From a virus: 64,000 nt of DNA. The notes beneath the pieces are model-generated. The model was not told where the DNA came from and did no database searches. It saw only the letters and a list, made by a program, of their open reading frames with translations. The stretch lies in IMG/VR virus record IMGVR_UViG_3300018719_000001, one strand, 5' to 3'. The position numbers and the translations under genes are program-made. Below are positions 11,768 to 11,843 of this stretch, in pieces (positions within the stretch are counted from its first letter, which is position 1; each line of letters starts with the position of its first letter).

Positions 11768-11843
11768 TGGTGCGTCCAGCGGGACTCGAACCCACACCTT
11801 CCGCTTTTAGAGAGCGGCGTTCTTCCAATTGAATTATGGACGC
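11768..11843 (-). tRNA. amber suppressor tRNA (anticodon CUA)
   Basis: Perfect 5-bp anticodon stem CCGCT/AGCGG; loop CUCUAAA gives positions 34-36 = CUA; 7-bp acceptor GCGTCCA/TGGACGC; A73; CCA; class-I shape. Confidence 0.8.

Follow-up and report, generated by a model that had tools for sequence, protein, structure and literature searches.

A CUA tRNA and its amber-led neighbour gene as a probable suppressor-gated cassette in a standard-code phage

Introduction

Suppressor tRNAs and stop-codon recoding are known from crAss-like, Lak and Agate phages (Borges et al., 10.1101/2021.08.26.457843). Orphan suppressor tRNAs have additionally been reported in standard-code phages with large tRNA arrays, among them XacN1 with two CUA tRNAs (PMC5852040), Stenotrophomonas phage Summit (PMC9022506), phiKp24 (PMC8386662) and Atu_ph07, where the anticodon is UCA (PMC6102473), and the papers on XacN1 and Summit state explicitly that no target genes were found (PMC5852040, PMC9022506). 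In this study, we analysed a stretch of 64,000 nt of viral DNA (IMG/VR record IMGVR_UViG_3300018719_000001), referred to as the window, which carries on its minus strand a tRNA gene with the anticodon CUA (11768-11843) and, ~125 nt downstream on the same strand, a short open reading frame (ORF) with an in-frame TAG near its start (11642-11370). Window and accessible flanks together gave a view of ~82 of the ~164 kb of the genome. We consider it probable that the CUA tRNA is a dedicated suppressor gating one or few amber-led genes in a standard-code phage, and that it forms a two-part cassette with the ORF at 11642-11370.

Results

ARAGORN located 29 tRNA genes in the window at 8103-13679, throughout on the minus strand. 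The gene at 11768-11843 was called as a 76-nt tRNA with the anticodon cta at position 34 and reached 62.6 bits on the Rfam model RF00005 (gathering score 29), which places it ninth of the 29 genes in the array. Its minimum free energy fold is a cloverleaf, and the sequence is divided as GCGUCCA-UA-AUUC-AAUUGGAA-GAAC-G-CCGCU-CUCUAAA-AGCGG-AAGGU-GUGGG-UUCGAGU-CCCGC-UGGACGC-A-CCA, with seven Watson–Crick pairs in the acceptor stem (GCGUCCA/UGGACGC), an anticodon stem CCGCU/AGCGG closing the loop C32-U33-C34-U35-A36-A37-A38, a variable loop of 5 nt (AAGGU), the T arm GUGGG-UUCGAGU-CCCGC, the discriminator A73 and an encoded CCA. U8, A14, G18G19 and A21 are all in place, as are the elements called for by RF00005, namely the T-loop UUCGA (54-58), the 7-nt anticodon loop, U33 and a purine at position 37. 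The sole blemish lies in the D stem, which has three Watson–Crick pairs and an A10.C25 mismatch. A preliminary description of this DNA had claimed a perfect acceptor stem, good D and T arms, an anticodon stem CCGCT/AGCGG, a loop CUCUAAA with CUA at positions 34-36, a class I tRNA with a 5-nt variable loop, and A73. All of this can be read directly from the sequence with the exception of the good D arm, and covariance-model scoring, which had been suggested as a check, returned neither a pseudogene nor another triplet at positions 34-36. By sequence and fold, 11768-11843 is a structurally sound, canonical class I tRNA, predicted to read UAG through C34-U35-A36 in a canonical loop, as in an amber suppressor.

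Initiator tRNAs are marked by a C1.A72 mismatch and by three consecutive G–C pairs at the bottom of the anticodon stem. An initiator tRNA reading UAG was rejected, since G1-C72 is paired and the anticodon stem is composed of C-G, C-G, G-C, C-G and U-A. The label 'tRNA-Pyl', which ARAGORN assigns from the anticodon alone, was likewise rejected. While pylT has a 6-bp anticodon stem, a 3-nt variable loop, a small D loop without G18G19 and an atypical T loop, and typically lies near pylS and pylBCD, the CUA tRNA has an anticodon stem of 5 bp, a variable loop of 5 nt, G18G19 and the usual UUCGA in its T-loop.

The ORF at 11642-11370 is the candidate client gene and consists of a Shine–Dalgarno sequence (SD), GTG, in total eight codons, TAG and 81 further codons. 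The SD AAGGAGG (11650-11656, minus) is located 7 nt upstream of the GTG. The leader GTG AAA GTG GTT TTA AAT AAG CTA (MKVVLNKL; 11619-11642, minus) is followed by the in-frame amber TAG as codon 9 (11616-11618, minus) and then by ATT, and the ORF body of 81 codons (IEKTRIVFHFNKKHNEDSSIPPWIVKAKGRTYYVNH...; 11370-11615, minus) closes with TAA (11372-11370). In the source assembly, the gene call at this place is limited to a 45-aa stub beginning at an internal start (P0137). In tblastn and profile searches homology begins at residue 1-6 after the TAG and the first canonical start is residue 34, so that homology starts at least 28 codons upstream of this start. No SD precedes the post-TAG ATT in the window ORF. 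The two closest homologues, found in the related loci L102 and L103, retain the leader and likewise carry TAG at codon 9 (MKKVLNSL-TAG-VSEEK, 70% identity, and MKKVMNEL-TAG-INEK, 60% identity); SD and start also precede the amber codon in relatives, and in L102 the CUA tRNA ends 22 nt before the ATG of the amber-led gene. We therefore take the full frame to be real, since homology spans the post-TAG start, no SD is present at the ATT and both leader and TAG are kept in L102 and L103. A scan of the window and accessible flanks (~82 kb) for an SD and start followed within at most 20 codons by TAG and a long ORF gave no other convincing case.

Between tRNA and ORF, RNA folding predicts a perfect 24-bp hairpin with a 31-nt loop (11684-11762, minus), the arms of which are unique in the window (2 matches vs 0.02 expected). 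No T-run follows the hairpin and it is absent from L102, the sole relative with this tRNA–gene junction; the hairpin may serve RNA processing or stability, or may have arisen by insertion. On the other side of the ORF, a skipping-rope RNA (RF02924, 71.4 bits vs gathering score 36.7; 11292-11370, minus) overlaps the stop codon by its first base, tRNA-Ser being the next gene. The skipping-rope RNA was rejected as a third partner of the cassette, since it lies beside the cassette in 1 of 20 other loci scanned (L100).

The pairing of CUA tRNA and amber-led gene recurs in other phages. Rhizobium phage RHph_I1_18 (MN988519), an unrelated, cultured isolate, contains an unannotated homologue of the form SD-ATG-MSEFM-TAG-domain, and an annotated tRNA(cta) lies 29 nt after it. 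For a survey of IMG/VR, a degenerate pattern derived from four homologues was used, which yielded 350 loci, and the best 80 were subjected to flank analysis with 2.5-kb flanks. Among these best 80 loci, 61 carry a same-strand CUA tRNA within 2.5 kb, and TAG is the in-frame stop just before the domain in 65. After dereplication, this stop is TAG in 53 of 62 loci, TAA in 6 and TGA in 3. The arrangement is exactly ATG-NNN-TAG in 36 dereplicated loci, with ATG-NNN-TAG-ATT as the usual form, and the base after the TAG is A, mostly as part of ATT, in 42 of the 53. As background, 27 of 235 long flank ORFs of the same loci end in TAG, and the TAG excess corresponds to a nominal binomial P of ~1e-40, in which independence is overstated since the loci are related. 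A long in-frame extension follows 4 of these 27 TAG-ending flank ORFs. Judged by the standard-code flanks of 66 related loci, the phages of the surveyed loci are not generally recoded.

Alignment of 40 distinct CUA tRNAs from these loci, a set to which the window tRNA belongs, on the cloverleaf gave 95.2% paired cells, 19 of 21 pairs being changed on both sides, and a covariation score of 0.908, while shuffles reached 0.27 and slid partners no more than 0.16. The aligned tRNAs show no variation at C34, U35, A36 and A37 and hardly any at C32, U33 and A38; acceptor stems are not conserved and the discriminator is mostly A. On this comparative evidence the CUA tRNAs are under selection, and the window tRNA is a genuine, selectively maintained gene. 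A36-A37-A38 is the recognition context of MiaA, and in classical E. coli genetics a 3' purine (+4) favours suppression; both features would fit efficient reading of UAG.

The small gene is accompanied by a second amber-led family. In 27 of 68 dereplicated loci, a gene of ~100 aa directly before the small gene matches PTH2 peptidyl-tRNA hydrolase (PF01981); the scores are 29.6 bits for L048 and 32.8 bits for L022, both above the cut-off of 23. All 25 distinct copies, which were caught by a motif, have a TAG just upstream of the domain, and in 23 of them no Met is present between TAG and domain. In each copy an ATG stands 1-4 codons before the TAG, which is usually followed by ATT (examples from the many uncultivated phages concerned are L029:2155-2502 and L105:3680-4008; related loci L022-L102), and gene callers shortened or overlooked these genes. 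The amber-led PTH2 gene is also found at loci whose small protein has a normal start, and the CUA tRNA would be kept at these loci because PTH2 is amber-led there. Counted over the related loci, leaders of the form ATG-(1-8 codons)-stop-ORF with an ORF of at least 60 codons contain TAG in 107 cases, TGA in 36 and TAA in 49. In the window, no PTH2 homologue was found by tblastn.

At most loci of these two unrelated families ATT, ATA or ATC follows the TAG, which suggests a signal at the nucleotide level, and with TAG at codon 3 the SD is 13-15 nt away from the ATT. Moreover, a CUA tRNA is missing for several kb around some of the amber-led genes. The leader could accordingly be a miniature upstream ORF, with termination at TAG and reinitiation at the adjacent ATT/GTN, and the CUA tRNA could perturb host termination or act as decoy for a defence nuclease. 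We consider this explanation unlikely. It leaves the TAG bias (53/62 and 25/25) unexplained, although TAA is the six times commoner stop in these genomes, as well as the presence of a CUA tRNA within 2.5 kb in 61/80 loci. Furthermore, in the window, L102, L103 and RHph_I1_18 the respective ATT, GTA or AAC lies 18-27 nt past the start and has no SD of its own, and the purine at +4 can also be read as the suppression-favouring context mentioned above.

Regarding the origin of the CUA tRNA, its loop CUCUAAA corresponds to the Trp loop CUCCAAA with C35U, and its body (D arm and T arm) is Trp-like, phage tRNA-Trp genes being the best blastn matches. It is located immediately after tRNA-Gln, which is the place of Trp(CCA) in Bacillus phage vB_BcoS-136, where the order is Gln-Trp(cca)-His-Glu; in the window, the order is Gln, CUA tRNA, amber ORF, skipping-rope RNA, tRNA-Ser and then His-Glu, and a second gene for Trp(CCA) is present at 8103-8176. 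Loop, body, synteny, the second Trp(CCA) gene and the A10.C25 mismatch would all be in line with a neutral relic, in which a redundant tRNA-Trp recently mutated from CCA to CUA and the neighbouring TAG is an unrelated nonsense mutation in a pseudogene. This is very improbable in our view, since G1-C72, C2-G71 and A73 are not Trp-like, the codon-9 TAG is kept in three homologues differing at 30-40% of residues, and the tRNA–gene pairing is found in hundreds of loci with strong covariation of the tRNA.

The amino acid carried by the putative suppressor can only be guessed. G1-C72, C2-G71 and A73 conflict with both bacterial Trp and bacterial Gln identity. To our knowledge, Bacillota hosts, which the relatives of the terL gene suggest for this phage, are without glutaminyl-tRNA synthetase (GlnRS). 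The nearest tRNAs are of mixed types with 65-80% identity only, so that similarity gives no amino-acid identity, in agreement with the preliminary description, in which the identity was held to be unreadable from the sequence. Bacterial tRNA-Trp identity is defined by G73, A1-U72, G2-C71, G3-C70 and the anticodon CCA (PMC9976931) and was rejected for the CUA tRNA in view of A73, G1-C72 and C2-G71, the resemblance being limited to loop and body. Determinants of bacterial lysyl-tRNA synthetase (LysRS) are A73 and U35, with U34 and U36 also contributing, and in E. coli, Lys is often the residue inserted by amber suppressors that have U35 and A73 (PMC9976931). The CUA tRNA matches these determinants in A73 and U35 and differs in C34 and A36; A73 is found in most of 47 related CUA tRNAs. 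From U35 and A73 we guess, with low confidence, that Lys is the residue inserted at UAG and LysRS the synthetase. The identity of this residue may matter little, since the UAG sits in a variable leader. In members of the small-protein family held in public protein collections (P0037, P0041 and others; MKQIT..., MSQVE...), among them the database proteins of L102 and L103, Q stands where the DNA has TAG. Such Q residues near the N-termini are an artefact of translating TAG as Gln and not evidence for glutamine.

One conserved UAG per gene in combination with a linked, dedicated tRNA resembles the logic of pyrrolysine and selenocysteine, and a special (non-canonical or modified), pyrrolysine-like amino acid at UAG could be envisaged on these grounds. 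We regard this as exceedingly improbable. The CUA tRNA is devoid of the peculiarities of pylT, and no synthetase or biosynthesis gene occurs among the conserved neighbours or the precomputed Pfam hits near the tRNA, the window scan being non-exhaustive. In addition, the UAG is placed in a variable leader (codon 2-9) and is absent in about a quarter of the family, which makes a catalytic residue unlikely.

We next turn to the genetic code. A greedy catalogue of 123 ORFs comprises 64 with TAA, 31 with TAG and 28 with TGA as stop, and for the 99 ORFs on the locally dominant strand the numbers are 53, 23 and 23, respectively. The terL gene (2374-4101, minus) ends in TAG. Two long open segments are split by TAA in 12 cases, by TGA in 8 and by TAG in 7, without an excess of TAG. 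In-frame extensions after TAG are not lengthened relative to those after TAA or TGA (medians 10, 9 and 10 codons; Mann–Whitney p = 0.58), and the +4 base at ordinary TAG stops is unbiased (C7/A6/G5/T5). The ORF running off the left edge of the window has no internal stop, and the next 7.6 kb beyond the window hold 13 head/tail genes (YonD to YomN) arranged back-to-back in the standard code. As far as visible, the genome is not wholesale recoded. The preliminary description had come to the same view and had listed TAG as a frequent stop including that of terL; its observation that the long late ORFs lack an in-frame TAG holds for terL, the portal gene, the left-edge ORF and the next 7.6 kb, but the short ORF with an in-frame TAG just downstream of the tRNA had been missed. 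Of its idea that selected TAG-terminated genes are read through, the form acting at 3' ends finds no support in the extension lengths, the +4 context or the splitting stops, while a selected target is retained in the form of the codon-9 amber.

It has been reported that suppressor tRNAs correlate with recoding and that recoding is concentrated in structural and lysis genes (Borges et al., 10.1101/2021.08.26.457843). With ~82 kb of the 163.8-kb genome outside our view and with TAG stops being rarer in the minus-strand terL block (3/27 vs 20/72, Fisher p = 0.11), classical partial recoding (code 15) has to be considered, in which the tRNA would serve many TAG-containing late genes (tail, lysis) in the remainder of the genome, a situation known from crAss-like, Lak and Agate phages. 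A code-15 phage is expected to have internal in-frame TAGs in numerous genes, above all those for structure and lysis, a low coding density under code 11 and few TAG terminators. We find partial recoding quite unlikely, given the TAG stop of terL, the standard-code, back-to-back arrangement of portal gene, next ORF and the 13 further head/tail genes, and the distribution of splitting stops described above. Unlike in the pre-recoding state (Borges et al., 10.1101/2021.08.26.457843), TAG is not depleted as a stop (23-25%). Moreover, ~82 kb contain one amber-led ORF only, and the flanks of the 66 related loci are standard-code. A code-15 recoded phage was therefore rejected over ~82 of 164 kb, TAG being a common stop and the structural module being dense in the standard code.

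As a separate observation, the plus-strand ORFs 29945-30355 (136 aa) and 30380-30763 (127 aa) share one frame, with TAG and eight sense codons between them. No other pair of this kind exists on the coding strand, and this one is compatible with chance.

The small protein encoded by the amber-led ORF had 132 matches in a word-index database, and at 50% identity its family falls into 147 clusters in a set of 1.84 billion representatives. All matches and clusters are unnamed and lack a Pfam domain, and the protein itself has no Pfam or PHROG match. AlphaFold2 predicts an all-beta fold (pLDDT 94.6, pTM 0.80), for which no structural neighbour was found in the PDB (best E-value 0.85), and structural matches in BFVD are uncharacterised phage proteins only (TM 0.6-0.68). 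The domain occurs alone (~85 aa), N-terminally in proteins of ~180-200 aa or C-terminally in proteins of ~175-190 aa (Atu_ph07, Phosso). Many database entries of the family begin at the internal Met of an IPMW motif, a pattern which would be a signature of mis-called starts and fits an unrecognised amber leader. The company of the gene, consisting of PTH2, a CCA-adding enzyme in 7 loci and tRNA arrays, suggests a role of the protein in tRNA biology or translation. In 13 loci, the small gene is succeeded by a third conserved ORF, which encodes ~112 aa (MKNTKHNPTMMIKS...).

With respect to the phage itself, the terL product shares 43-49% identity with YonF-type terminases encoded by Brevibacillus phage Sundance, three Bacillus phages (FADO, PBC2 and vB_BcoS-136) and Lactococcus phage 949. 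An identical terL protein is present on a JGI contig of 163,787 bp (3300018875 Ga0193608_1000055) and on an ENA contig of 163,801 bp (ERZ27286122 k141_392995), and an overlap of 14,101 nt with the window is free of mismatches. The order HU – PhoH – tRNA array – metallophosphoesterase – YonG – terL – portal is common to Tsamsa-like Bacillus phages. At 60% terL identity, two relatives only were found (L001, L002), neither of which has a CUA tRNA in the 10 kb upstream of terL that were covered; their arrays may extend beyond this stretch. No CUA tRNA was found in the tRNA arrays of FADO, vB_BcoS-136 and PBC2, and no tRNAs in the stretch of Sundance that was examined. An exact 41-nt pattern of the tRNA had no match in viral or genome contigs, nor had terL in a scan of a metagenome collection. 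Pfam assignments in the window include a PIN-PhoH fusion (14133-15434), a RecD2-like helicase (17127-19484), a tubulin/FtsZ-like GTPase (19707-20837), a tyrosine recombinase (22668-23711) and a GmrSD_N-domain protein (61385-62842), a gene set reminiscent of plasmid-like or temperate SPbeta-/Tsamsa-type phages.

The array of the window covers 19 amino acids, tRNA-Phe being the one not covered, and contains further unusual genes. ARAGORN labels 12770-12843 (minus) 'tRNA-SeC(tca)', and its score on the Rfam tRNA model is just 37.6 bits. The gene is Trp-like, being closest to the Trp(CCA) gene of the array, ends in ...CCCUG-CCA and displays either the anticodon UCA in a 7-nt loop over a 4-bp stem with an A.G mismatch or an 8-nt loop UAGUUCAA; opal reading or quadruplet reading is possible. 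A leader scan of the window gave no convincing TGA-led ORF for this tRNA. Bacterial tRNA-Leu is normally class II; the 'tRNA-Leu(tag)' at 10461-10537 (minus), also seen at L002:5199-5275, measures 77 nt and has a short variable loop, which corresponds to class I length. An ORF of 223 aa lies inside the array (9465-10136, minus) and has distant homologues only (<=39% identity) in unrelated contexts, among them contigs with capsid and RNA polymerase genes of nucleocytoplasmic large DNA viruses (NCLDV) and small phages. As a route to phage relatives it was dropped, since its homologues are scattered and include giant-virus contigs.

In several other phages, the cassette has tRNA-like genes beside it whose anticodon loops are abnormal (ARAGORN 'tRNA-???', anticodons of 2 or 4 bases) or whose T loops are aberrant (L023:2778-2850, L028:2749-2818, L036:2823-2895, L048:3625-3697 and L075:2104-2178). 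In 11 of 64 cases, the gene directly 5' of the CUA tRNA is a tRNA-Cys(GCA), and in one IMG/VR phage group a GOLLD RNA (RF02032, 193 bits; L065:1538-2000) is located just upstream of CUA tRNA and amber-led gene.

Discussion

We propose a model in which ribosomes start at the SD-GTG of the window ORF, translate eight codons and meet UAG. Without the phage CUA tRNA, release factor 1 would terminate translation at this position. Once matured and charged, presumably by a host synthetase, the CUA tRNA would read UAG and thereby give rise to a 90-residue protein with the conserved all-beta domain. From the arrangement of the locus we infer this read-through itself as well as its purpose, which could be conditional or timed expression, with the gate acting as an AND gate, a delay or a feed-forward element on the phage's own tRNA array. 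The early position of the UAG would render failure nearly cost-free, as no truncated protein is produced. The gated proteins probably act on tRNA or translation, because the same gate (ATG, 1-4 codons, TAG, ATT) is also found on PTH2.

Several observations weigh against this model. Expression, charging and read-through are all inferred, and about half of the 164-kb genome was inspected. About a quarter of the ORFs end in TAG without a protective context, and an efficient suppressor would add tails to their products (median 10 codons). Within the cassette, the 24-bp hairpin between tRNA and ORF is not conserved, and the A10.C25 mismatch of the tRNA stands against a G10 that is at least 90% conserved among related CUA tRNAs. 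In the survey, 19 of the best 80 loci have no CUA tRNA within 2.5 kb, the amber leaders of L103 and L105 are without a CUA tRNA in 3-8 kb, and ~17 of the 62 family members start in the ordinary way. Finally, the near-universal TAG-ATT is also readable as a reinitiation signal.

Beyond the window, it is rather likely that many standard-code phages carry an amber-gate mini-regulon, composed of a CUA tRNA and of UAG within the first 2-9 codons of the genes for the novel all-beta protein and for PTH2. If this holds true, production of translation-directed proteins would require prior expression, processing and charging of the phage's own tRNA, which would explain the 'orphan' suppressor tRNAs of tRNA-rich phages and reveal a gene family that standard gene callers do not see. 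It would further show that a stop codon and a private tRNA can constitute a gene-specific switch instead of a change of the code. In terms of annotation, standard callers shorten or miss amber-led genes, as seen from the 45-aa stub in place of 90 aa in the window and from the unannotated homologue of RHph_I1_18. A gated PTH2-type hydrolase, together with a confidently folded beta domain, would point to manipulation of tRNA or translation by the phage.

Phage suppressor tRNAs, recoding and orphan CUA tRNAs are known. What is likely new is the conserved N-terminal amber leader on genes beside a CUA tRNA as probable target of the latter. The literature, the coverage of which was incomplete, yielded no account of N-terminal amber leaders tied to CUA tRNAs of phages, so that this absence is not proof. 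The window tRNA shares the loop CUCUAAA with E. coli Su7 (supU), an amber suppressor derived from tRNA-Trp by C35U, and its D and T arms are likewise Trp-like, but its acceptor stem and A73 are not. Su7 is moreover a laboratory mutant and mostly charged with Gln by GlnRS (PMC9976931), whereas the window tRNA is a natural, conserved gene.

In recoded phages, a phage CUA tRNA similarly allows translation of UAG-containing genes in a standard-code host, and conditional or timed expression has been proposed (10.1101/2021.08.26.457843). In contrast to the window phage, tens of structural and lysis genes with many internal TAGs are involved there and TAG is lost as a stop. The window phage retains TAG as a normal stop (~25%), and a single UAG is placed at codon 2-9 of one or two small genes near the tRNA. 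The phages with orphan suppressors resemble the window phage in that a nonsense tRNA lies inside the array and the other genes are standard-code. In those reports, however, read-through at C-termini was looked for or no search was made, and no targets were named, while here the N-terminal amber leader is the likely target.

Synthesis of a translation-related protein is also tied to the handling of stop signals in the frameshift at the in-frame UGA of prfB (RF2) and in the non-stop regulation of arfA. In these cases, as proposed for the cassette, the response of the ribosome to an early stop signal in the mRNA controls synthesis of the encoded protein. However, prfB and arfA involve host factors only and their feedback is demonstrated, whereas the window cassette has a dedicated tRNA gene in cis. 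In synthetic AND gates and feed-forward loops built on suppressor tRNAs (PMC7969014, PMC11669171), an early amber codon and a separately supplied suppressor likewise lead to tight conditional expression. These circuits are engineered, and the cassette of the window would be their natural counterpart.

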